Positions 5,465 through 35,451 of a stretch of 35,451 bases of DNA are shown here, piece by piece; the stretch's first letter is position 1, and every line of letters starts with the position of its first letter. This stretch comes from a virus (lineage: Duplodnaviria > Heunggongvirae > Uroviricota > Caudoviricetes). The DNA lies in IMG/VR virus record IMGVR_UViG_2740892422_000002, positions 1-35,451 of that record; one strand, written 5' to 3'. The notes under the pieces are model-generated. The model did no database searches, was not told the DNA's origin, and worked only from the letters and a program-made list of their open reading frames with translations. A program made the translations under genes and the position numbers.

Positions 5465-6049
5465 TTATTCTCCGGTGTAATAATATTCATATTCCGTGCC
5501 CGCCAGCCGGTAATGCTTCAGCAGGCATTCCAGCTCGCGGGTCCGTTCGCTGATTAATGGCGTCATGACGTCATCAATACAGGTAAACCGCCCGGCATCT
5601 TTGTCCGGGACTTCCACTTTCAGCAGCCAGCGATACCGCGCCGGATGTAGCGGGTACATGCAGTCACGCAGGCAGTGGTGCGGCAGAACGGCCGTCACCT
5701 TAATAGTGAATCCCAGCGCCGCCGCAGCGGCTTCAATCTGCCAGGTGGCCAGCCCGCCTTTGCGGCGGTATTTCTCCACCACGGCCCGGCGGCGGGCTTC
5801 CGTTGTGGTGGCGGCAATTCCGCATTCCGGCAGCGCCAGATATTGCTCCCACTCCGGCAGCAACTGGAGCGTGGTTTCCGGTCGCATCTCCACATGCAGA
5901 CGCGAGGCGTCGTATTCAACGCGGGTTAAACGCTCTGCAAGCGCCCTTAAAAAACGGTTTAAATCCGCGTCGTTATCACGCGGCCATGCCTTACCCCGTG
6001 GCATGACCTGTTGCAGTGCGGTCAGCCATTCCGTCACGCTGTGAGCCAT
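5465..6049 (-). CDS. tail/baseplate protein (Mu gp48-like, DUF2313-type)
   Basis: 194-aa ORF directly after the baseplate-J gene; position and size match the Mu gp48 family. Confidence 0.55.
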   Translation of the reverse strand: MAHSVTEWLTALQQVMPRGKAWPRDNDADLNRFLRALAERLTRVEYDASRLHVEMRPETTLQLLPEWEQYLALPECGIAATTTEARRRAVVEKYRRKGGLATWQIEAAAAALGFTIKVTAVLPHHCLRDCMYPLHPARYRWLLKVEVPDKDAGRFTCIDDVMTPLISERTRELECLLKHYRLAGTEYEYYYTGE

Positions 6050-7110
6050 GTCACCTCCCCGATGGTGATAAGCTCATCCACATCACTGGTAGTGTCTTCC
6101 CCGATGTTCAGGAAGTAGTCCGCGATGCCGGACGTCATACCGATGGCCGTGCGCAGCGAGGACACCGGCAACATCTGACCGGGGGCCAGCGTTTTCTGTA
6201 ATGCGGTCAGGTTTGCCCGGACGGCGTTCCTGTTCGCCTGGCTGTCCGGTGTCAGACGGATGGACAGGTCGACTTTCTTCAGCCTGACCTGTACCGGCCA
6301 GACCTCGATGCCGCCCGGTTTTCCCACCATCACGCCGGTGGCCGGGTGTTTGTGGCAGAACAGATACTGCTCCATTGTCTTCAGGTCTTCGCGGGTCGGC
6401 ACAATGTCTTCACGGTCATCATAAAGCCATGCCAGCCCGACCGTGCCGGGGCCGTGCCACGCATCCCACGCCCACGCACGGCTGACGCCCGGCACTTCAC
6501 GCGCCCATATCACGTAGTCATGCAGCGCACCGCCCACCGGGGGATTGCGGCGCACATACAGCAGACGGTCCAGCAGCTCTGCGATGGATTCGATGTCTGC
6601 GCCACCGGTGATGCCACTTTCAGTCACCGCGCCTGTGCTGCCCGTTCCGGGTAGCGGGGATAACAGGGTCAGCACGGCACCGGCAGCAAGATTGCCTGCC
6701 ACACCGGCTTCTTCAGCCTGCACGATGACGGTGACCTCGCCGTCCTGTACCTCGCCGGATGTGAGTACCTGATACACCTGATTCGTGTCGGACTGCATCC
6801 GGGTTTCTGCCGGAATGGGGGACTGACTGGTGAAGGTCACCGGCCCGCTGGCAAAGGTTGCCTGCTTGCGGATAACCCCTTCATACGTTGCTGTTTTGAT
6901 AATGGTTTCATCATCAGACGTAGTGGACGGAATTATCTGGTCCTTGATCCAGCTCTGATGGTCGTATAAATCCCGGACCTGACTGCTGAACGACACGTTC
7001 AGCGCCTGCTCAACACTGACAGGCGGCAGCTTTTGCAGGCCGAGTTCATACGCAATATCTTTTTCGCCGTCGGCAATCAGTTTGCCCAGCGTGGGGATTT
7101 CATACGGCAT
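6034..7110 (-). CDS. baseplate J-like protein (Mu gp47-like)
   Basis: 358-aa ORF in the baseplate cluster; size and synteny. Confidence 0.75.
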   Translation of the reverse strand: MPYEIPTLGKLIADGEKDIAYELGLQKLPPVSVEQALNVSFSSQVRDLYDHQSWIKDQIIPSTTSDDETIIKTATYEGVIRKQATFASGPVTFTSQSPIPAETRMQSDTNQVYQVLTSGEVQDGEVTVIVQAEEAGVAGNLAAGAVLTLLSPLPGTGSTGAVTESGITGGADIESIAELLDRLLYVRRNPPVGGALHDYVIWAREVPGVSRAWAWDAWHGPGTVGLAWLYDDREDIVPTREDLKTMEQYLFCHKHPATGVMVGKPGGIEVWPVQVRLKKVDLSIRLTPDSQANRNAVRANLTALQKTLAPGQMLPVSSLRTAIGMTSGIADYFLNIGEDTTSDVDELITIGEVTWLTA

Positions 7111-7552: not shown

Positions 7553-8085
7553 ATGGGCGGTGATGTCTTCTCATTGTCGCCGTCCTTATGAATGTGTTTG
7601 ATGAAAGATTTACCGTTGATTGTGGCATCTGCAGTAAATTCACAGGGACCGACGAATTTCATTTGTTTACCGATAATATTCAGCAATTCGTCGGCGGTGA
7701 GATTTACCGTTTTCCCTGAAACGTTTAATTGTTCTCCTGTGATTTCAATAATTCCGCCTTTCTTTAACGTGATATGCGATTTACCGTCCTGGTGATACAG
7801 CCGGACATCACCGGGGGACAGGCCTTTCGGGCGACATCGCTTGTCCTCCACCGCGATGGCAACCAGCCCGTCACGCCGTCCGCCCACGGCCAGCACGATG
7901 GCTTCAGAACCTTCCGGCGGAACGGAAGTAAACCCGTAGTTCTGGAAGCGTTCCACGTCGTCGTCGGTGGCATCAGCCAGCGTCTGGATTTGCAGGTTCT
8001 GCCGCTCCAGACTGTCAGACACCATGCGCACAACGGCACGGTCAACCAGCAGCCGCAGACGGCGGGCAATTGCGTTTAATCCCAT
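7549..8085 (-). CDS. baseplate assembly/spike protein (Mu gp45-like)
   Basis: 178-aa ORF downstream of the gpD/P-like gene; synteny. Confidence 0.6.
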   Translation of the reverse strand: MGLNAIARRLRLLVDRAVVRMVSDSLERQNLQIQTLADATDDDVERFQNYGFTSVPPEGSEAIVLAVGGRRDGLVAIAVEDKRCRPKGLSPGDVRLYHQDGKSHITLKKGGIIEITGEQLNVSGKTVNLTADELLNIIGKQMKFVGPCEFTADATINGKSFIKHIHKDGDNEKTSPPI

Positions 8086-9146
8086 GTGGCCACCGCCTTT
8101 GTTTTCTTCGTCTTCGCTTTCATTTCCGGCATATCCAGTGATTCAGGCGGAACCAGCGCCAGAACCGTCATCCGCCCCTGTGCGCCATCCGTCCAGGTCA
8201 CCCCGGATATCAGCCAGGTGGTTTTCAGGTTCTGAATGCTGTCGTCGATATCGACAAGGCGGTTGGTCTGCCACAGCGGGCCGCTGTCGCCCTGTTCGCG
8301 CCAGCCTGCCACCGTGATTTCCGTCGTGCGGGATTCCCCCAGCATCCGGGCTTTGTACCATTCCCCGCGAATGCTGGCCCCGCCCACGGTCAGGCTGTCT
8401 TCATTGACCAGAATGCGCGGGCGGTAACGGTTAATTTCCGGGTCTTCGGTGATGTACTGGCGACCACCCACCATCGAGGCAGGCTGGCTGTCCCACAGTT
8501 TGCCACCGGCACTGGTGGTGCCCTTGATGATGTACTGGCTGTTACGCTCCCGCCAGCTGAAGCGCCCACGGGCAGCGAGGATATTTTTCCCCAGCACCAG
8601 TGACACACCCGCGCGAACGGAAGAGGCGCGGGTGATAATCAGGTTACCTGCGCCGTCAGACGTCAGCAGAACGCCGCGCTGTTTTGCCAGCCGGTCGAGC
8701 AGTTCAAAGCCCGTTTCACCCTGTTCCAGAACGACGGACGCAAACGCCTCCCCGGTCGGGGTTTCCGTGATGACGGTTATCCCGAACGGGCGGCAGACAT
8801 CAGCCGCCACCTGTTCAAGCCGCACGCCTTTCCATTTCCCGGATGAATGCACCACAGAGCAGTCCACCAGGTCACCGGTTTTGTCGCGCCCCATGACGCG
8901 GATCTCCACGTTATCTGCGTCATAGCTGGGGATAAAATCATCAATATACCCCGTCAGCACGGTATCCGCGCCCAGCCTGACCGTGCAGGGTTGCCCCTCA
9001 CGAATCACGCGCGGTGCCGCCGCTGACCAGCGGGTTGTCACACTGAGATCAAACTCACCGGCAATCGCCTTCAGGGAACGGCTGATGGACATTTCCGTCC
9101 AGCCTTCCCACAGTTTGCCGTCAACGGTAAGAATCACGGATTCCAT
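8076..9146 (-). CDS. baseplate hub/tail protein (Mu P, P2 gpD-like)
   Basis: 356-aa ORF following the DNA-circularisation N gene; size and order typical of Mu P. Confidence 0.7.
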   Translation of the reverse strand: MESVILTVDGKLWEGWTEMSISRSLKAIAGEFDLSVTTRWSAAAPRVIREGQPCTVRLGADTVLTGYIDDFIPSYDADNVEIRVMGRDKTGDLVDCSVVHSSGKWKGVRLEQVAADVCRPFGITVITETPTGEAFASVVLEQGETGFELLDRLAKQRGVLLTSDGAGNLIITRASSVRAGVSLVLGKNILAARGRFSWRERNSQYIIKGTTSAGGKLWDSQPASMVGGRQYITEDPEINRYRPRILVNEDSLTVGGASIRGEWYKARMLGESRTTEITVAGWREQGDSGPLWQTNRLVDIDDSIQNLKTTWLISGVTWTDGAQGRMTVLALVPPESLDMPEMKAKTKKTKAVATWD

Positions 9147-19544: not shown

Positions 19545-21108
19545 GAGCAGTGTCCCCCAGCACACGCGCCTTAAAGCACACCTCCGCCAGTTGCAGGGCA
19601 AAGTCGTCCGCGTTCAGCGTTTCCTGAAGCTCAGGCAGACGTTTCAGAAAGTCATCAAAACTGTCGCATTCCTGCGCCAGTGTCAGCACCGGGTTCGTGA
19701 ACGCCTCGCCGGTTTTCTGCCAGTCACGCAGGGCATCATCCACCATCTGTGCCAGTTCATCGGGGTGTTCACGGTTCAGGGCGACGCGCTCGCGGTTCAT
19801 CGCCATATCACCTGACATTCCGGCAGACACCGGATGCAGAACATCAGCCCCGTCGTCCGGTTCAGCCAGGCCGAACCGGTCCCGCAGCTCCGATTCCTGA
19901 ACCCGCATCCCCCGGTCAATCAGTGGCACCAGAGCGTCTGTCAGCGCCTTCAAATCTTCCGCTTCACTGATACGCAGAACAACACGGGGGTAGTGCGCCT
20001 GTGGCCCGTAGTTGGCCTCAATGTAGGGGCGTACCAGATATTCATTCAGCGTGTTAGCCAGCTGCCGCGCGTCCCAGCGCACAATGTCCATGCGCACCTG
20101 ATTGTGCACGTCCGCCTGTGAACGCGAACTGCCGTTATCCGTGGTCATGGTCTGCCCCAGCACGGCTTTACTGATTTGCGCATCACACCATTCCGCCATT
20201 TCACGGAACAGTGCGCCGCCGTTATTCCTGCTGGCGGTTTCCTTCATCTCCAGTTGCATGGACTGCGGAATGGCACACCCGGCATCCGAGGCAATGGAGG
20301 CAATCGCATCAATCAGCACGCGGATTTGCTCCTCCGTGGCGTTGGGACCGTATTTCCCCACCGTGACCGGAATGCCGAATTTTTCCGCAAATGCCCACCA
20401 GTCGCGCACGGTAAAGGATTTCAGCATGTACATCACCGCCACCAGACGGGCCAGACCGTTACGCAACGGCAGACCGGATTTCAGGCGCGGCTGGTGAACA
20501 ATGAATTTTCCCGGTGTCAGCGGTACGCCATCCACCGGTTCATCGTCCGTCAGCAGGCGGAACTGGCGCAGCGTGGGTTTTTCGGCTTTCAGAAAACGGG
20601 GATCAACCCATTCATAATCACGGGGCATCCAGTGGTTGTTGCGGGTGTCCCACAGGATTTCACAGACCGCCACGCCTTTTCCCAGCCCGTCGAGCAAATC
20701 AAACATCAGCTCAGGGATTTGCGGGGCTTCCATCAGCGCACGGATGGCGTCCGCCAGTTGCACGTCAGCATCGTCATCACTGGCGGCCACCACCACCGGT
20801 TCGATACCCGCCACCGTCAGCTTGCGGGTGCGCAGCACCGAGGCGTAATGCAAATCGCGTTCTTCCATCTCTTCAGCAAGGATAAAAAAATCACGTGTGA
20901 TGCCGTCGGCGGCATTGCGCAGAATGCCTGCCAGCCTGCCGGGGTTCAGCCCGGAGGCGACGCTGATACCCGGCGAGGCCGAACGCACACCGGCATGACG
21001 CGGACGGGCCTGTGCTTCGTTGAGCGCCTCTTTTTTCAGCGTGTCTTCCTCACCGGTTGCCGGGTTCAGCAGACGGCGAACGGCCCCGGCCAGTTGTTTC
21101 AGGTTCAC
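19537..21108 (-). CDS. portal protein (Mu H/gp29-like)
   Basis: 523-aa ORF with GTG start at 21108 preceded by GGGAGG RBS; GTGA overlap with terminase large stop. Confidence 0.85.
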   Translation of the reverse strand: MNLKQLAGAVRRLLNPATGEEDTLKKEALNEAQARPRHAGVRSASPGISVASGLNPGRLAGILRNAADGITRDFFILAEEMEERDLHYASVLRTRKLTVAGIEPVVVAASDDDADVQLADAIRALMEAPQIPELMFDLLDGLGKGVAVCEILWDTRNNHWMPRDYEWVDPRFLKAEKPTLRQFRLLTDDEPVDGVPLTPGKFIVHQPRLKSGLPLRNGLARLVAVMYMLKSFTVRDWWAFAEKFGIPVTVGKYGPNATEEQIRVLIDAIASIASDAGCAIPQSMQLEMKETASRNNGGALFREMAEWCDAQISKAVLGQTMTTDNGSSRSQADVHNQVRMDIVRWDARQLANTLNEYLVRPYIEANYGPQAHYPRVVLRISEAEDLKALTDALVPLIDRGMRVQESELRDRFGLAEPDDGADVLHPVSAGMSGDMAMNRERVALNREHPDELAQMVDDALRDWQKTGEAFTNPVLTLAQECDSFDDFLKRLPELQETLNADDFALQLAEVCFKARVLGDTAHA

Positions 21109-22640
21109 AGTAAACCTCCCTCATTTTTCAGGCCGCGCGTCAGCTTCATCTGGCGGCGCGCGTTGCGTTCTTCCGGTTTCGCCGGGCGGTTCAGGCGGTG
21201 CAGTTCGTAACGGTGGCAGTCATCCTTGCTGGCAAGGAAGCCCAGGAAAATGGCCACAGCGGCGTCGCCGTGACGTTTGTGACCGTCGCTGCCTCTGGTT
21301 CGTGAATCATCAATGCCGGGAACGCCACGCAGTAACTGAATGGCCCCGAGGTCATTGATCACGTCTTCATGCTTCGGAAGGATCAGCTCATCATCTTCAA
21401 ACGCTGCACGGAACCGGGGCATGTTTTCGCGGTAGAACGCCACGGACAGCATCACCTGTTCCACTTCGTCGCCGTACCGCTCCGCCGCCTGTTCTGCCAG
21501 ATACTGACCATTCCCCCGCGCATCCATTTTGATACCGTCACGACGGGGCAGACGATCGCAAAGCCAGAACAGCACCTGCTCCTGCTGTTTAAACGGCACA
21601 TTGCCAAGCTCAACCAGGAACGGCACCTCGCGGGTGGTGTCATCGTTCACCGTCACCGGGGCCAGTACGGTCAGGTCACCCGAACGCGCAAAGTCTTCCC
21701 CCAGACAGTGGCGCAGGTTCTTCGGGAGTTTTTTCAGCTCGGGGCGCACCACCGTTTCCAGCCATTCCCGGATATCTGCCCGGCGCTGGCTTTCCGTCAG
21801 TGCGTTAAATTCCGGTGTGCCGGTAAAGCGCAACACTTTCCCGGTGCCACGGGCCGCACGTTCACGCAGTGAGCGGCGGATATACGTGCCGCCGCCGTTT
21901 TTCGGGACGCAGTAATACTCCTCCAGCGCGTCTTCGCGGGTGGCGGTATTTCGCAGCAGGCCTTCTTTCCATTCCGCCTCGGCTTCCGGTGACCACACCA
22001 TGCCGCGCACCTGACAGATACGTCGGTACAGCCCGTCATTGCAGGCGTCGTCCAGCGTGATGGTGTGAATGCTGTAATCTTTTTTGCCCGCGCGGCTTTC
22101 CTGAATCAGCTGGTTAAACAGGTTGTCCACGCCGTCATGGGTGGAAATAAGGCGAATTTTGCCGCCCCATGTTTTCAGCGGCAGCACAGCCTTCAGCAGC
22201 TCGTCCAGTTTTTCATGGAACGCGGCCTCGTCGATGGTGACATTCCCCTGCATCCCGCGAATGTTGCTCGGGTTGCTGGACAGTGCCTTGACCTTAAAAC
22301 CGCTGGCGAAGTACACGACGAACGTCAGAATGTCCTTGTCTTCGTCGGTGATCACTTCCTCGCAGATTTCTTCCGCTGCCGCATTAAACGCTTTCGCCCA
22401 CATCGCCACAGCGTCGATAAATTCGCGGGCCATCTCCTTATTCGAACCGATATAAAAGTGATCGCGCCCGCCGTCTTCCTTCTTCAGCGATGCCGTCAGT
22501 GCTGCATCTGCCGCCTCCGCCCAGGTTAAACCTGTACGGCGGGATTTCTCGGCGATTTTCAGGTCGGCATCATCCGCCACCCAGCGTTTCTGATACGGCA
22601 GCAGAACATCATATTCACTGAACGTATCCATTTGTGTCAT
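21105..22640 (-). CDS. terminase large subunit
   Basis: 511-aa ORF; ATGA overlap with the terminase small gene; ATPase and nuclease-like regions; position upstream of portal. Confidence 0.9.
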   Translation of the reverse strand: MTQMDTFSEYDVLLPYQKRWVADDADLKIAEKSRRTGLTWAEAADAALTASLKKEDGGRDHFYIGSNKEMAREFIDAVAMWAKAFNAAAEEICEEVITDEDKDILTFVVYFASGFKVKALSSNPSNIRGMQGNVTIDEAAFHEKLDELLKAVLPLKTWGGKIRLISTHDGVDNLFNQLIQESRAGKKDYSIHTITLDDACNDGLYRRICQVRGMVWSPEAEAEWKEGLLRNTATREDALEEYYCVPKNGGGTYIRRSLRERAARGTGKVLRFTGTPEFNALTESQRRADIREWLETVVRPELKKLPKNLRHCLGEDFARSGDLTVLAPVTVNDDTTREVPFLVELGNVPFKQQEQVLFWLCDRLPRRDGIKMDARGNGQYLAEQAAERYGDEVEQVMLSVAFYRENMPRFRAAFEDDELILPKHEDVINDLGAIQLLRGVPGIDDSRTRGSDGHKRHGDAAVAIFLGFLASKDDCHRYELHRLNRPAKPEERNARRQMKLTRGLKNEGGLL

Positions 22641-23218
22641 GCGCTAATCCCCAGAATTTCACGTTTGATGGTGTCAGCCGCACCACCTGACAGACCGCCC
22701 GTTCTGACCAGTTCTTCGGTTTTCTCTGCCATCTCCTGCGCAAACGCATCGCGGATCGCTTTCTCGCGTTTATGGCTGGTCATGGCTGCCGCTTCCAGAC
22801 GCTGGGCAACCAGCGCCAGTTGCCCCAGCGCCTTCGGTGCAACGGGCTTGTCGTCTTCTGCCATCGACATGGACGTTTCAAAGGCCAGCGTTTTCACAAA
22901 CTCCATCAGCAGCTTGCCGACGTCTGACGTCGGCGCGGAACCCAGCTTTGCCGCCCAGACTTCGGCCATTTCGCGGGAGGCGCGGATTTTGGCCCCGACT
23001 TTTTCCATGCGGATGGCATAGCGGTTTAAGCCCGTCCGGCTTAACTGCATCTCTTCCGGCAGGTTGTGTTCGTCAATCAGGGCGTTGATGGCTTCGCGGA
23101 TTTCTTCCTGCGTGTGCCGCTTTTCCCGCAGCATCTGATGCAACTGCTCCCGGATGCTGTCAGGGAGTAAATCCACTTTGGAAAGACGGCCACGGGTGGG
23201 GCGTTGTTCATTTTCCAT
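22637..23218 (-). CDS. terminase small subunit-like DNA-binding protein (Mu gp27/D-like)
   Basis: 193-aa product from ATG at 23218 with AGGAGG RBS (the ORF-track start at 23239 is a GTG); ...SKVDLLPDSIREQLHQML... typical of the Mu-like terminase small subunit family. Confidence 0.7.
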   Translation of the reverse strand: MENEQRPTRGRLSKVDLLPDSIREQLHQMLREKRHTQEEIREAINALIDEHNLPEEMQLSRTGLNRYAIRMEKVGAKIRASREMAEVWAAKLGSAPTSDVGKLLMEFVKTLAFETSMSMAEDDKPVAPKALGQLALVAQRLEAAAMTSHKREKAIRDAFAQEMAEKTEELVRTGGLSGGAADTIKREILGISA

Positions 23219-23355
23219 GTGTGCCCTCCTGTTGCTCACTACGCTGTAAACTTTCGTATGCAGATTTCAGTGCGCCGCTCTGGATTTCCCGCCATGTCAG
23301 GTTGTGCGCCAGACGGCGGAGTTCATCACGGGACGCTTTACTTATCGGATTCTTT

Positions 23356-23655
23356 TTACGGTTCACGACGGCCCCCGTCTTCAGTTCCCGGTGTTTTCAG
23401 ACCGGCGTATATTTCTTCGCGAACGGAGCGGATATCCTTACCCAGCAGCTTCCACAGCCGCGCACATGCCGGTGATGAACGCAGGGCACGTTTCATGGGG
23501 GTATCCGGTGCATCCGGGTTCCAGGGCTTTCCGGTCTGTTGTTCATATGCACGGGCGATGGCGTTTTTCTCAATATCCGCGAGCACAAGACAGTACGCCA
23601 GCTGCCGCACGACGGCCCGTTCTCCGCGACTTAACGGCTTCAGTTTTCGGGCCAT
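23356..23655 (-). CDS. hypothetical protein
   Basis: 99-aa ORF tightly packed after the upstream gene; no family recognised. Confidence 0.4.
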   Translation of the reverse strand: MARKLKPLSRGERAVVRQLAYCLVLADIEKNAIARAYEQQTGKPWNPDAPDTPMKRALRSSPACARLWKLLGKDIRSVREEIYAGLKTPGTEDGGRREP

Positions 23656-23657
23656 GC

Positions 23658-23951
23658 TCAGTCCCTCGCACGGGGTTTCTTAACGCCCGGAACGCTGGAC
23701 AGGCCGTTTGCCACATCCTCACCGCTGCCGGTGATTTCAGCCACGTAACAGCCGCCCACATCAGACAGACGAACCAGCCCCTGCTCGCGCAGCCATGCAA
23801 GCTGGGTGCGCACCACATCACGGGATACCTTATGACCGTAGGCCTGAAGGCAGGTCTGCAACACGGATTCATTCGCGCTGTCGCCACAGTCCAGCAGGGA
23901 ACGCAGCAACACCAGACGACGGTCTTCAGTGAGGATCTCTTTCATCGCCAT
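23658..23951 (-). CDS. hypothetical protein, possible winged-helix DNA-binding protein
   Basis: 97-aa ORF with ATG at 23951 overlapping the upstream stop; helix-rich N-terminal half. Confidence 0.45.
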   Translation of the reverse strand: MAMKEILTEDRRLVLLRSLLDCGDSANESVLQTCLQAYGHKVSRDVVRTQLAWLREQGLVRLSDVGGCYVAEITGSGEDVANGLSSVPGVKKPRARD

Positions 23952-24256
23952 TATTTTTTTTCCTTTAACTCGTTCTCTAATAACAAATCGCTGATGCGGG
24001 ATACCTGGCGGATGGATGGCCCCAGCTCTTTGATTTCTCCCCGCAGGTTGCTGATATCCAGTTGCAGGCGGTGGAACTCATCACGGTCGGGTAAATGGTG
24101 TACCTGGCTTTCCATCACCGACACGCGGGAACGGAGTGAATCAAACTCTTCACGTTTGACGTAGGTTTTCGCCAGAATCAACTGAAGCAGGTTTATTCCT
24201 GTCATCAGCAATGCCCACAGAATGGGCCAGTTGGCTCTGATCATTTCCCAGGACAC
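23951..24256 (-). CDS. membrane-anchored coiled-coil protein (DUF2730-like; candidate lysis accessory protein)
   Basis: 101-aa ORF with N-terminal hydrophobic segment WPILWALLMTGINLLQLIL followed by a charged coiled-coil region. Confidence 0.5.
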   Translation of the reverse strand: MSWEMIRANWPILWALLMTGINLLQLILAKTYVKREEFDSLRSRVSVMESQVHHLPDRDEFHRLQLDISNLRGEIKELGPSIRQVSRISDLLLENELKEKK

Positions 24257-24468
24257 GTTTTCCTCCTGCGTTCACGCATCTGCTGACAGTCAATACAGGT
24301 CACCACATCCGGCAGCGCCGCAAGGCGCTGTGCCGGAATAACGTTCCCGCAGTCATTGCATAAGCCCCGGCTGTGGGGCGCTTCTTTTGTCCGCGTCTGC
24401 CAGGCTTTAACGACGCTCTGACGCTCGTTCAGAACCACTTCACTGATGCGGTCGATTTCGTCGGTCAT
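24241..24468 (-). CDS. TraR/DksA-family C4 zinc-finger protein
   Basis: 75-aa ORF with CNDCG...(17 aa)...CIDCQ motif. Confidence 0.75.
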   Translation of the reverse strand: MTDEIDRISEVVLNERQSVVKAWQTRTKEAPHSRGLCNDCGNVIPAQRLAALPDVVTCIDCQQMRERRRKTCPGK

Positions 24469-25073
24469 TTCAGCCCCGCAGAAATTTTGTGACGGCTTGA
24501 CTTGCTGTAACGGGCAAAGCCGTCAAGGGTTCTTACACCGAGATAGCCCAGCGCCGGGGTAAGCAACATCAGCGTGATATCCCAGTCCGGTGACGGCATA
24601 TGCAGCGAGATACCTCTGGCACCGGCAATGGCTCCGGCAATCTGGCCGCAGGAGAGCAACAGCACATAGGCCAGACTGCTGTAACAGGAAAGGCGGGCCA
24701 GCAGCGGGCGCGTCTGGCGCACATAGCTGTCCGTGGCGTTGTCACCATTGCGGATGGTTTCCTGCTGTTCGTGGTGTGCGGCCTGCTGGTCAGCCAGCAC
24801 CAGCTTCTGCCGTTCCACCTCCAGCTGTTGCAGCTGAATTTTCAGGGTTTCCAGTTGTATCTGTTGTTCCGGTGGTAACATCGCCATCTTCTGTTCCAGA
24901 ACGCGCTGCTGTTCAGCCACCGGCAGGCTTTCCCGGACGCTTTCCACCATACCGGCCACCGAGTCAGCGGCAGCAGACGTGCTGCCACCAAACCAGCGCC
25001 CGACGGAACGAATCAGCCCCGGCCCGGCGTTCAGCAGAACAGAGGCGATGCCTGAAAGGGTTAACGGATCCAC
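24465..25073 (-). CDS. coiled-coil membrane protein (candidate spanin-like lysis protein)
   Basis: 202-aa product from GTG at 25073 preceded by GGAGG RBS; Gln/Glu-rich heptad-like region; C-terminal hydrophobic stretch containing LLLSCG. Confidence 0.4.
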   Translation of the reverse strand: MDPLTLSGIASVLLNAGPGLIRSVGRWFGGSTSAAADSVAGMVESVRESLPVAEQQRVLEQKMAMLPPEQQIQLETLKIQLQQLEVERQKLVLADQQAAHHEQQETIRNGDNATDSYVRQTRPLLARLSCYSSLAYVLLLSCGQIAGAIAGARGISLHMPSPDWDITLMLLTPALGYLGVRTLDGFARYSKSSRHKISAGLK

Positions 25074-25486
25074 GGGAAACCTCCATACAGATAACGCTGA
25101 AGACAGAGCAGACCGCCGCAACTGCCACCACACAGCCAGAACACCGGATGCACCGGTGACATCATCATCAGCGTGCTGAAGACGCAGCAGAAATACCCCA
25201 GCGCCCAGACCACCCATGACCACACGATGATGTGGCGACCAAAAGCCCGGTAACGGACTTCAGGCAGCAGGCGAAATGGCACATTCCCGAGGCTTGCGCT
25301 GTATGAAAACAACACCACCCCGGCAAAGGACAACAACATCAATACGAACGATCGCCAGCCACATAACATGCTGATGATGAACATGCAGAGTGTCAGTCCG
25401 GCCAGCGGCCATGGCGTTCTCATCAGTCGGGAACAAATCAGCCAGTCACACAGTTTTAAAATTTTGTTCATTACCTTTTTCCACAT
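25061..25486 (-). CDS. polytopic small membrane protein (candidate holin)
   Basis: 141-aa product from ATG at 25486 with GGGA RBS; three to four hydrophobic segments, Cys/Trp-rich. Confidence 0.4.
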   Translation of the reverse strand: MWKKVMNKILKLCDWLICSRLMRTPWPLAGLTLCMFIISMLCGWRSFVLMLLSFAGVVLFSYSASLGNVPFRLLPEVRYRAFGRHIIVWSWVVWALGYFCCVFSTLMMMSPVHPVFWLCGGSCGGLLCLQRYLYGGFPWIR

Positions 25487-25697
25487 TGAATTTTTCCCTG
25501 TACTTCTGGCACTGCCAGAAAATGTCCCGTGTATCCACGGAGTTCCAGCCACGCATGTAGTAGCTGGCGTGTGTGCCGTCATGGCCTGTATAGTCCAGCG
25601 GTTTCGGGGGCGGACCTCCGGCCATGCGGTGCAGAACCTCCTGACGCAGGCGGTCACGCCGCCCGGCTTTCAGTGAGGCATCCCAGCCTTTACCCAT
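25446..25697 (-). CDS. hypothetical protein (lysis cluster)
   Basis: 83-aa ORF whose ATG at 25697 follows the endolysin stop; no transmembrane segment or lipobox. Confidence 0.4.
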   Translation of the reverse strand: MGKGWDASLKAGRRDRLRQEVLHRMAGGPPPKPLDYTGHDGTHASYYMRGWNSVDTRDIFWQCQKYREKFNVEKGNEQNFKTV

Positions 25698-25698
25698 A

Positions 25699-26283
25699 TC
25701 ACCCCCGCGTGGCGGACATGATGCCCAGAGGGGTAAGACAGGCGTCGGTCAGCTTTTCCATGCGGTTAAACCAGCCGTTCAGGTATTTGCCCTGGGCGGG
25801 TTTTGATTTGATGATGTCGGCATAAAAGCGGGAACGACGGACAATACAGCGGGCCAGCAGCCAGTCAGGGGTGGACTGGCTCACGGCCTTGCGGGTACGC
25901 GGCCCGATGATGCCGTCAGCATCCACATCAGCGGCCTCCTGCAAAAGTTTGATAGCCTTTTTAACGCCATGCTGAACCGCCGCATCAAACACAAAAAGCG
26001 CCACGCCATCAGGCCACTGGTCACACCCGGCAGGCAGCCAGTAATCGCGCCAGTAAATCTGCGCAACCTGTTCGCGGGTCAAATCCTTAATGCGGGTATC
26101 CGGTTTGCCGTCGCCGTTGACGTCGGTTTTGCCGTCAATCACACCGTCGCGGCGGTCAGAAATGCCGTATTTGGTTTCGCCGCCACGGTCAGTGGGGTCA
26201 TTGACATAGACGCCTTCGATATCGGGACGCAGAATGAAATTCAGCGCATGTTCAAAGGCCGGGGAGAATTTTTGATTTTCCAT
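25699..26283 (-). CDS. endolysin, glycoside hydrolase family 108-like with C-terminal peptidoglycan-binding domain
   Basis: 194-aa ORF; N-terminal ...ALNFILRPDIEGVYVNDPTDRGGETKYGIS... matches the GH108 catalytic motif; no signal or SAR sequence. Confidence 0.8.
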   Translation of the reverse strand: MENQKFSPAFEHALNFILRPDIEGVYVNDPTDRGGETKYGISDRRDGVIDGKTDVNGDGKPDTRIKDLTREQVAQIYWRDYWLPAGCDQWPDGVALFVFDAAVQHGVKKAIKLLQEAADVDADGIIGPRTRKAVSQSTPDWLLARCIVRRSRFYADIIKSKPAQGKYLNGWFNRMEKLTDACLTPLGIMSATRG

Positions 26284-26338
26284 AAAAGCACCTGTGAAGC
26301 AGATTTAAACGTGGTCTGCTTCATGGTGCCGGAGGCAT

Positions 26339-26362
26339 AAAAAAAGCCGGATTTACCGGCTT
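26339..26362 (-). terminator. Rho-independent terminator-like hairpin with U-tract (copy A of a duplicated element)
   Basis: Minus strand AAGCCGG-TAAAT-CCGGCTT followed by T-run; lies between the secreted-protein gene stop (26385) and the endolysin start (26283). Confidence 0.6.
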
Positions 26363-26384
26363 CATTGAATATAAGGTTATTGGT

Positions 26385-26882
26385 TCAGTTAACTTTACGG
26401 GCAGAACACGTAGTCTTCATTACTGAACGTTCAATTTTTATCTTCCAGCCATTTACTGTTTTTTCGACAGGATCATCTTCAGCTTGCTTTAAATTTTTAA
26501 CTTGCATGAAATTCAGCGGGGCTGGGGTATCATCGTCCCATGATGTCGGGCGAACATAATCAGGGACAACAAAAGGCTCAAAAACAGTTTCACATAAAGC
26601 AGACGTCATTTGAGCGAACTCGTCGCTATCGGGGCGAACCGGTCCTGTAACATACTGCATTTTTATGTTGATTTCGTTATCTCGCACAGACGTCTTTAAA
26701 TCCTGATATACACCTAAGTTAAATCCTTTAAACTCAGCAATGGCAGCGTCACCTTTACCGTACCAGTCGGTATAGTCAACGGATGTTTTTTTCTGAAAAA
26801 CATCTTTGACTTTTTGCTGGAATGTATCCGCCGCTTGTACAGTAGTAACAGTTAGTAAAAGAATAAGGGGAAGATATTTCAT
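26385..26882 (-). CDS. secreted/periplasmic protein of unknown function (AT-rich moron)
   Basis: 165-aa ORF with N-terminal signal peptide MKYLPLILLLTVTTVQA|AD; markedly AT-rich relative to flanking phage genes. Confidence 0.7.
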   Translation of the reverse strand: MKYLPLILLLTVTTVQAADTFQQKVKDVFQKKTSVDYTDWYGKGDAAIAEFKGFNLGVYQDLKTSVRDNEINIKMQYVTGPVRPDSDEFAQMTSALCETVFEPFVVPDYVRPTSWDDDTPAPLNFMQVKNLKQAEDDPVEKTVNGWKIKIERSVMKTTCSARKVN

Positions 26883-27280
26883 TGTTCGTCCTTAAATAGT
26901 TGCATTTGATATTTTCCACGCTCCAGTCGGCGCATTCTTTTGATGGCCTGATATACCGTTTTGTATGTCACTTTGTAACGCTGCACCAGCTCCGCTACGT
27001 TTTTCCCATCAAAATCACGCCAGATGCGCATGTCTCTGATAAGATTTTCCAGTATTTTCCCTTTCGGAACATATACCTGAATCCCACCGATATGATTGCA
27101 AATCGCCACTACCAGCTCAAGGGAGTGGGCAGGGTTAACTCCAAGCCTTATCAGCTCTTGTCGCAACAGAGCATTCAGCTCAGCCAGTAAAGATGGAAAT
27201 CCCGATTTTTCCTGAACATCATCAAAATATTCAAGGATACTGTCGTCCTGATAATCACCAAATAAATCCTGCTCTTTCAT
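26879..27280 (-). CDS. mor: Mor/C-family transcriptional activator
   Basis: 133-aa ORF with acidic N-terminus and C-terminal ...AHSLELVVAICNHIGGIQVYVPKG...YKTVYQAIKRMRR... resembling Mu Mor/C; located directly after the gemA-like gene. Confidence 0.7.
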   Translation of the reverse strand: MKEQDLFGDYQDDSILEYFDDVQEKSGFPSLLAELNALLRQELIRLGVNPAHSLELVVAICNHIGGIQVYVPKGKILENLIRDMRIWRDFDGKNVAELVQRYKVTYKTVYQAIKRMRRLERGKYQMQLFKDEQ

Positions 27281-27828
27281 AGAACTATTCTCCCGCTGTT
27301 TCTGGCGCGGGCATACGCACTGGTCAGTGCATCATATCCGCGCAGTTCCCGCCCGGTTTCGCTCACAGGTAAAGGCACGCCGTGTCGGGCAAAGGCTTCC
27401 CGAATGCAGCGCATATGCCACTGCTTGAGCGTTTCGAGCACAACCTGCAACGATTCCCCATGACACCAGGCCAGCGTGGAAACACCCTGACCACCATTAC
27501 GTCTGGCCGTCAGACGTTCAACGTATTTGTCCAGCGCGGCGTCGCTGATATCGGAGACGAAACCATCAAGAAACATCTGCTGCCAGATTTTATAAATCTT
27601 CTCGCGCGGTGTGACATGCCCCTTAAAGCGACGGCGGGGATGTTTTTTCTGCTTTTTAAAACCGCGCTCTTTCATGGCATCGAGCACTTGTTCCAGTTGT
27701 GCAACAGACAGCTCGCGGCAACTGGTTTTGCCCGTGCACTGCACCAGAAAAGCTCGGTAAGTGTCATCGTCGAGTTGCAACTCCCGACGGGCAACATGAA
27801 TTAATTTAATCAGGGATGTGCGGCTCAT
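27277..27828 (-). CDS. gemA: GemA-like early protein
   Basis: 183-aa ORF immediately upstream of mor, matching Mu gemA in position and size. Confidence 0.6.
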   Translation of the reverse strand: MSRTSLIKLIHVARRELQLDDDTYRAFLVQCTGKTSCRELSVAQLEQVLDAMKERGFKKQKKHPRRRFKGHVTPREKIYKIWQQMFLDGFVSDISDAALDKYVERLTARRNGGQGVSTLAWCHGESLQVVLETLKQWHMRCIREAFARHGVPLPVSETGRELRGYDALTSAYARARNSGRIVL

Positions 27829-34636: not shown

Positions 34637-35451
34637 CCGGTGATGAGCAGGTTGAGGTGCTGAAGGGCATCAGCCTCGATATTTATGCGGGTGAGATGGT
34701 CGCGATTGTTGGCGCTTCGGGTTCCGGTAAATCGACCCTGATGAATATTCTCGGCTGTCTGGATAAGGCCACCAGCGGCACCTATCGCGTCGCCGGTCAG
34801 GATGTTGCCACGCTGGACGCCGATGCGCTGGCGCAACTGCGCCGCGAGCATTTCGGCTTTATTTTCCAGCGTTACCATTTGCTTTCGCATTTAACCGCCG
34901 AGCAGAACGTTGAAGTACCCGCCGTCTATGCTGGTCTTGAGCGGAAACAGCGACTGCTTCGTGCCCAGGAGTTGCTGCAACGGCTGGGGCTGGAAGACCG
35001 TACAGAGTATTATCCGGCACAGCTTTCGGGTGGTCAGCAACAGCGCGTCAGCATCGCGCGGGCATTGATGAACGGTGGTCAGGTAATTCTTGCCGATGAA
35101 CCAACCGGCGCACTGGACAGCCATTCTGGCGAAGAGGTGATGGCGATCCTGCATCAGCTGCGCGATCGTGGGCATACGGTGATTATCGTCACCCACGATC
35201 CGCAGGTCGCTGCTCAGGCCGAGCGGGTGATCGAAATTCGCGACGGCGAAATTGTGCGCAATCCTCCCGCCATTGAAAAAGTGAATGTTACTGGCGGGAC
35301 GGAACCTGTTGTCAACACGGTGTCTGGCTGGCGGCAGTTTGTCAGCGGTTTTAACGAGGCGCTGACGATGGCATGGCGGGCGCTGGCAGCGAATAAAATG
35401 CGTACTTTACTGACCATGCTGGGGATTATTATCGGTATTGCGTCGGTGGTT
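34637..35451 (+). pseudogene. macB: macB (macrolide ABC transporter ATP-binding/permease), 3' portion only; gene interrupted by the prophage and running off the window end
   Basis: In-frame translation from 34639: [56 protein letters not shown]...[15 protein letters not shown]...[11 protein letters not shown]..., i.e. the ABC ATPase domain of E. coli MacB beginning around codon 18. Confidence 0.85.

Follow-up and report, generated by a model that had tools for sequence, protein, structure and literature searches.

Proteins of the TraR family are an established means by which plasmids and phages retune host RNA polymerase (RNAP) without ppGpp, and the locus described here adds one more member. 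TraR of the F plasmid needs no DNA to bind RNAP. Its N-terminal helix threads the secondary channel, starting at the active site and leading outwards; the β′ rim helices carry its zinc domain, and its C-terminal helix touches β lobe-Si1 (PMC6970531). D3 and D6 are required for function, and R48 plays an important part in rim-helix binding (PMC9239242). E46, R49 and K50 contact β′Si3, and alanine variants at these positions keep their binding and near-normal inhibition, with activation about twofold lower; the P43A and P45A variants bind more weakly, P43 being needed for tight binding to RNAP. Binding in the secondary channel and ppGpp-independent inhibition of rrnB P1 have been shown for TraR and five phage homologues (PMC9239242), and the remark in our preliminary description of the locus that phage homologues reprogramme host transcription is in this sense a published one, established for other homologues. 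The tested phage homologues with known context (four of the five) lie in early or regulatory regions, and all five carry the pair R48-R49.

Among these proteins, Orf82 of phage P2 equals TraR in its binding to E. coli RNAP; its IC50 for inhibition of rrnB P1 is 250 nM, compared with 50 nM for TraR (PMC9239242). Orf73 of phage λ slows host growth and raises burst size, and its D3N and D6N variants show that both aspartates are needed. A 2026 preprint describes the VP882 TraR as complexed with the product of a neighbouring gene and as switched off by another phage protein. In transposable phages, a TraR/DksA zinc-finger gene, gp7 of the Burkholderia phage KS10, was described in 2008 in the slot that leads from the lysis genes to the small terminase, which is also the slot of the gene reported here; the authors proposed that it controls head-gene transcription (PMC2628397). 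In the Vibrio Mu-like phage martha 12B12 and its relatives a DksA-like gene lies directly upstream of a gene of the DUF2730 family. The Mu member of that family, gp25, is the "releasin" that frees Mu's membrane-tethered endolysin (PMC9239132).

The TraR-like gene and its product

The window analysed here is a single stretch of viral DNA of 35,451 nucleotides. It represents a Mu-like transposable prophage of E. coli: between positions 2600 and 34636 its identity to a prophage of strain ETEC1732 is 99.98%. An intact ORF on the minus strand (24241-24468, ATG to TGA) encodes a protein of 75 aa, MTDEIDRISEVVLNERQSVVKAWQTRTKEAPHSRGLCNDCGNVIPAQRLAALPDVVTCIDCQQMRERRRKTCPGK. The preliminary description had given these coordinates correctly, stop codon included, and the CxxC-17-CxxC finger that it had claimed is present as C37-x2-C40, a 17-residue spacer and C58-x2-C61. 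The N-terminus reads MTDEIDRI, and D3, D6 and R48 are all present.

The protein matches Pfam PF01258 (zf-dskA_traR) at 41.5 bits (E 1.4e-10), against a gathering score of 24.9 bits, and PHROG_54, "DksA-like zinc-finger protein", over its full length (E 1.4e-19). The NCBIfam model TIGR02419 (C4_traR_proteo), titled [quoted passage not shown], is matched at 61.2 bits versus a cutoff of 59.7, a narrow margin of 1.5 bits. By these three scores the zinc-finger match is not due to chance. A sequence search of the PDB returned F-plasmid TraR in complex with RNA polymerase as the best match (5w1s, 6n57; E ~1e-6), followed by DksA (1tjl, 2e-5) and YbiI. The DksA equivalog models (TIGR02420/NF008045) gave 27 bits, far under their cutoffs of 115-289, and only the zinc-finger C-terminal part of the protein aligns with DksA, at residues 92-149. 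E. coli DksA has the same C4 zinc-finger domain, as reflected in its E value and in a fold match, and serves as the model for secondary-channel binding; however, it has 151 aa and a two-helix coiled coil and needs ppGpp, whereas the protein studied here is half as long, with a single N-terminal helix, and lacks the architecture of DksA proper (~150 aa, two-helix coiled coil with a DxxDxA tip). By sequence, then, it belongs to the TraR family and not to DksA proper. This identification is already known, as the public genome annotation carries the same name: RefSeq calls the exact protein "TraR/DksA C4-type zinc finger protein" (WP_032084915.1).

Structure prediction with AlphaFold2, from an alignment of 82 sequences, reached moderate confidence, with a mean pLDDT of 74 and a pTM of 0.43. 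The model consists of a helix at residues 3-27, a zinc knot and a second helix at residues 59-71, and the predicted fold thus has the three elements of F TraR, which comprise residues 2-27, 28-57 and 58-73 (PMC6970531). When the model was compared with the PDB using Foldseek, the top 11 matches were DksA/TraR-family chains only, led by DksA and TraR bound to RNAP with a probability of 1.00, at TM-scores of only ~0.5. The TraR/DksA homology proposed in the preliminary description is therefore recovered by three curated HMM libraries, by the PDB sequence search and by the fold search.

Comparison with F-plasmid TraR (PDB 5W1S, 6N57/6N58), whose sequence agrees with a translation of the gene given in Table S4 of PMC9239242, shows two proteins of similar length (73 versus 75 aa) that share 32-36% identity, depending on BLASTP settings. 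The alignment has no gaps around the zinc site, so that C37, C40, R48, C58 and C61 carry identical numbers; D3 and D6 are shared, and E66, R67 and K70 of the C-terminal helix are identical. The differences include A8, P43 and the β′Si3-contact residues E46/R49/K50 of TraR, where our protein has I8, V43 and A46/L49/A50, all three contact residues being replaced; P45 is present. Features of the TraR family that the protein carries include the C4 finger, scores above the HMM thresholds, the architecture, D3/D6 and R48, while A8 and E46/R49/K50 are absent. The genetic contexts also differ, since the F TraR gene lies in the conjugative transfer operon and the gene reported here in a phage late operon. 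In keeping with membership of the family, the protein is encoded on a mobile element of Proteobacteria, whose RNAP carries βSi1 and β′Si3, in this case an E. coli Mu-like prophage.

Among the phage homologues, P2 Orf82 shares 33% identity and the same imperfect DxxDxI motif; it has R48-R49 and is expressed from an early promoter with replication genes, whereas our protein has R48-L49 and is encoded among late genes. λ Orf73, of the same family, shares 30% identity and lies in the exo-xis (early) region; the two aspartates that it needs are both present in our protein. The counterparts in KS10 and martha have low identity to our protein, 34% in the case of martha.

A HMMER scan of 1.84 billion representative proteins retrieved 476 relatives at E ≤ 0.001, and relatives are found in gamma- and betaproteobacteria. 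Residue conservation, counted on an alignment of 97 short, full-length representatives, was complete (100%) for the four cysteines and R48, and high for I44 (97%), D6 (96%), P53 (92%), E66 (91%), D3 (90%), Q62 (90%) and A8 (87%). Our protein has every one of these residues except A8, which is replaced by an isoleucine found in 2% of the representatives and throughout the E. coli clade. At position 49 leucine is the most frequent residue among the 97 (53%), followed by arginine (26%).

Related loci were gathered from IMG/VR with a 13-sequence alignment, which yielded 80 loci whose relatives are 42-97% identical. The gene order holin-like, TraR-like, DUF2730, gp26-like, gp27, terminase is kept in 80/80, and the ORF is intact, with both Cys pairs, in all 79 of the 80 loci that could be reconstructed. 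Loci from Raoultella, Brenneria, Trabulsiella, Serratia, Klebsiella, Ferrimonas and Rheinheimera share this order, which an Alcaligenaceae MAG and Thauera retain in part. The conservation in Mu-like phages that the preliminary description had suggested checking is thus borne out by the Cys pairs, retained in 79/79 syntenic loci and 97/97 representatives; of the two results that it had named as fatal to its reading, a lack of TraR/DksA homology and a loss of the Cys pairs in relatives, neither was found.

A short ORF of 75 aa that overlaps its neighbours at both ends could in principle be a non-functional remnant or an annotation artefact. However, the median pairwise dN/dS within the E. coli clade is ~0.27, the frame is intact in all 79 relatives down to 42% identity, the HMM matches are strong, and conservation of the gene spans Enterobacterales, Ferrimonas and Rheinheimera, the synteny being partial in Thauera. 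This conservation and the dN/dS effectively refute the remnant reading, which we consider extremely improbable. Because of the low dN/dS and the conserved ORF, the TraR-like gene is a real gene under purifying selection.

A large sister clade occupies the same slot (for example in L025, L026, L047, L055 and L071, match 6001-6210). Its proteins begin with MT(K/R)AFDRAS, having K or R at position 3, and keep D6, A8, R48 and the Cys pairs. Gp34 of X. bovienii, a tested homologue that also has no D3, was considered as a member of this Mu-like K3/R3 clade, where it would have supplied direct biochemical evidence on a syntenic orthologue, and was rejected on tail resemblance alone: the tail of Gp34 (translated from Table S4), KHYRSE, resembles the KHYRRMA of P2 Orf82. 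Only the zinc-finger half of our protein aligns with Gp34.

Candidate action on RNA polymerase

The reading that we favour, with a probability of roughly three in four, is that the gene encodes a late-made, TraR-family binder of the RNAP secondary channel that would inhibit rRNA and ribosomal-protein promoters. By analogy with TraR, the N-terminal helix (3-27) would enter the secondary channel and place D3 and D6 beside the active site, the zinc knot with its invariant R48 would rest on the β′ rim helices, and the C-terminal helix (59-71) would contact β lobe-Si1. Such binding would be expected to cause ppGpp-independent inhibition of promoters with short-lived open complexes, namely those of rRNA and ribosomal-protein genes, and this inhibition may free RNA polymerase and resources for the late functions of the phage. 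The protein would be produced late in lytic growth, from an operon whose first gene is the endolysin and which continues through the terminase and portal genes. We infer the binding to RNAP, the promoter targets, the late timing and the benefit to the phage, whereas the gene itself, its family membership, its fold class, its conservation and its operon context are established directly. The late-time role in particular is extrapolated, because the tested homologues with known context are early or regulatory.

Inhibition is probably kept, with TraR-type activation weaker and potency somewhat below that of TraR; weaker activation is expected since E46/R49/K50 are replaced by A46/L49/A50. Several findings count against the favoured reading: the margin of 1.5 bits for TIGR02419, I8, V43, the lost β′Si3 residues, the moderate confidence of the structural model and its TM-scores to TraR of only ~0.5, as well as the K or R at position 3 in the same-slot sister clade, given that D3N weakened λ Orf73, and the bare Cys pattern of Mu gp24 in the same slot.

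Late operon, hairpin elements and competing readings

The TraR-like gene lies within an operon on the minus strand. Its first gene encodes a GH108 endolysin with a peptidoglycan-binding domain (25699-26283), and is followed by an 83-aa ORF (25446-25697), a 136-aa ORF rich in hydrophobic residues (25061-25471) and a holin-like protein with three transmembrane segments (24465-25073; weak GTA_holin_3TM match, PHROG_1544). Downstream of the TraR-like gene are a DUF2730 gene of the Mu gp25 "releasin" family (23951-24256; PF10805, 105.9 bits), a VpaChn25_0724/gp26-like gene (23658-23951), two small ORFs (23208-23655), a gp27-type small terminase (22637-23239; PF11985, 185 bits; PHROG_426; also named in RefSeq) and the large terminase (21105-22640, named in RefSeq), these last two being the packaging genes, all on the same strand. 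A Mor/C-family transcription activator (26879-27280, minus strand; PF08765, 103.7 bits; PHROG_532) is encoded upstream and is presumed to activate the late operon.

The genes on either side of the TraR-like ORF overlap it. The TGA stop of the holin-like gene and the ATG of the TraR-like gene share the sequence ATGA (24465-24468), a Shine-Dalgarno-like GGGG run lies 5 nt before that ATG, and the GTG start of DUF2730 and its AGGAGG ribosome-binding site fall inside the last 16 or more nucleotides of the TraR-like ORF. The tight linkage to late genes noted in the preliminary description is accordingly confirmed by overlapping ORFs on both sides and by the order kept in all 80 loci. Its placement of the gene next to lysis and packaging genes is likewise accurate, because DUF2730 is the Mu gp25 releasin family: the neighbours comprise lysis genes (endolysin, holin-like, DUF2730) and packaging genes (gp27, large terminase).

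A sigma-70 consensus scan of the gene strand from the endolysin to the TraR-like gene found no promoter-like site. Late promoters of Mu-like phages are activator-dependent, and a scan of this kind would miss them. Terminator-like matches between the endolysin and the TraR-like gene amounted to one weak hairpin, located within a coding region, and a search of positions 22000-27500 against Rfam gave no match.

This setting raises the question of whether the protein acts on lysis or packaging itself. It might be a zinc ribbon that works in these processes without RNAP, for example as a cytoplasmic partner of DUF2730, of the holin-like protein or of the small terminase, with its TraR-like features inherited and no longer the function under selection. 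The order holin-like, zinc finger, DUF2730, gp26-like is fixed in 80/80 contigs and across genera, with overlapping frames, as would suit a protein tied to its neighbours, and partner proteins are worth considering because the VP882 TraR works in complex with a neighbouring gene product, QisA. However, growth arrest by VP882 still relies on TraR-RNAP binding, and the positions relevant to RNAP (D6, R48, the helix lengths and E66) are the most conserved of the clade, a pattern difficult to account for if RNAP were not the target.

Phage Mu itself bears on this alternative. Mu gp24 (L002, 3025-3219; annotated as hypothetical) occupies the same slot, directly upstream of gp25 (DUF2730), and has the CxxC-17-CxxC pattern in a protein of 64 aa that has neither D3/D6 nor a C-terminal helix and carries V in place of R48; it has no match in Pfam. 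The presence of the Cys pairs in the absence of these other features counts in favour of a zinc ribbon independent of RNAP. A profile comparison gave a probability of 59% over 31 columns, covering the zinc ribbon only, and on these data gp24 is not demonstrably a member of the TraR family. Its own family is tiny, with only five close relatives, one of which is without the second Cys pair, and gp24 may be a decaying TraR-like gene, a point against this alternative. In addition, the study that defined the lysis genes of Mu did so without mention of gp24 (PMC9239132). Considering both sides, we regard a role confined to lysis or packaging as improbable, and retain binding to RNAP as the preferred reading.

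The limits of the operon are marked by a repeated element. A 20-nt hairpin, GAAGCCGGTAAATCCGGCTT, followed by T7 occurs in two exact copies in the window, with shared flanks, where none is expected by chance. The first copy (26344-26363, minus strand) forms the upstream boundary of the operon; it follows the unit made up of the Mor-family activator and a 165-aa ORF, and lies 57 nt before the endolysin ATG. The second copy (18621-18640, minus strand) is upstream of the protease/scaffold gene and forms the downstream boundary. Among the related loci, 71/80 have the hairpin upstream of the endolysin, including those whose flanks are not alignable; 28 of these loci match the pattern once more, ~7.4-7.9 kb further downstream. 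The endolysin-side hairpin is almost invariant, its conservation being far above that of an ordinary terminator.

In sequence the hairpin with its T7 looks like an intrinsic terminator, and a late promoter is presumed just downstream of the endolysin-side copy; the element may combine a terminator with a late promoter or an activator site. In Mu, too, a hairpin of this kind lies between C and lys. The middle transcript of Mu ends at a terminator after C, and the C-dependent late promoter Plys comes next; a second one, PI, precedes gene I. The TraR-like gene sits in the counterpart of Mu's lys operon. From this lys-operon-like position, the hairpin elements and the parallel with Mu, we infer that its expression is late and activator-dependent.

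A position of this kind would also be consistent with a protein that acts mainly on the late promoters of its own phage, bound to RNAP and aiding the Mor/C-family activator much as TraR stimulates F-plasmid promoters, with the shut-off of host rRNA synthesis not its main effect. TraR significantly raises transcription from F-element promoters in vitro, as reported in PMC9239242, whose authors allow that other homologues might regulate the promoters of their own phages. The first late operon, which follows the Mor-family activator, contains the gene, and the highly conserved element stands ahead of two late gene blocks. Nevertheless, the λ promoters tested did not respond to λ Orf73, the residues whose alanine changes halve activation by TraR (E46/R49/K50) are all replaced in our protein, and a gene of the late operon cannot start its own operon but only reinforce it. 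We therefore consider it unlikely that the phage's own late promoters are the main target, and return to inhibition of host rRNA and ribosomal-protein promoters as the preferred role.

Part of this picture is already known, namely the annotation of the protein, the mechanism of the family and the presence of a TraR-like gene in the transposable-phage slot (2008). Beyond these lie the consistent late-operon placement across the Mu-like lineage, the replacement of the β′Si3 interface and the K3/R3 sister clade, which are modest variations on the known theme. The placement matters in that the Mu-like lineage keeps a TraR homologue in its late lysis/packaging operon and without the β′Si3 contacts, whereas the tested homologues of known context are early genes and all five have R48-R49. 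We put forward tentatively, and with more doubt than conviction, that Mu-like phages harbour a distinct late-operon subgroup of TraR proteins, translationally coupled to lysis genes, without the β′Si3-contact residues and often without D3 or A8, whose mode of action could differ from that of the early-region homologues studied to date. If this were true, the subgroup might act as an inhibition-only factor, by which shut-off of host rRNA synthesis at the end of the cycle feeds Mor/C-dependent late transcription, or alternatively in concert with the product of an adjacent gene, like the VP882 TraR with QisA; Mu gp24 would then be a decayed remnant of the same subgroup. Proteins of this type could tell whether TraR inhibition and activation come apart in nature, and could reveal what a late-expressed modulator of RNAP does for a phage.

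The prophage and its variants

The RefSeq annotation of the copy in ETEC1732 includes a Mu-like gene set: a repressor, a Ner-like protein, a transposase, an AAA ATPase, Gam and gp16, followed by the Mor-family activator, the endolysin, DUF3486/gp27, the terminase, a DUF935 portal, the protease and the gpT head protein, and a tail part with sheath, tube, tape measure, baseplate and tail fibre. Of 5,426 complete E. coli genomes, 53 carry the region. A megablast search of a 4.7-kb region against 50,697 phage records gave no match, and the element is known as a prophage only.

The prophage ends at ~34636 in the window, where the host flank (34637-35451) is macB. In the ETEC1732 copy (L001 from 32037) the flank consists of a truncated flhA (FHIPEP) and flhB. 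That the window is the ETEC1732 prophage in flhA was considered and rejected, as the alignment shows the differing host flank, macB. The sequences are instead consistent with the same Mu-like prophage residing in different genes of different strains, inserted by transposition, and each such insertion disrupts a host gene.

Few indels separate the two copies, with three gap openings over 32 kb. The DUF2730 protein differs near 23927-23951, with 109 aa in ETEC1732 (under a strain-specific accession) and 101 aa in the window, and a baseplate gene, annotated by RefSeq as frameshifted in ETEC1732, reads as one 356-aa ORF at 8076-9146 of the window.

Two further ORFs vary among related prophages. 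The 165-aa ORF (26385-26882, minus strand), which has a signal-peptide-like N-terminus (MKYLPLILLLTVTTVQA), sits between the Mor-family activator and the hairpin. It matches nothing in Pfam or PHROG and is found in only some related prophages, and on both grounds looks like an accessory ("moron") gene. The 136-aa ORF of the lysis cassette (25061-25471) exists as two alleles, ~98% and ~39% identical to the window copy, which differ among E. coli prophages that are otherwise 90-100% identical; this pattern of sequence identity indicates a mosaic replacement inside the lysis cassette.
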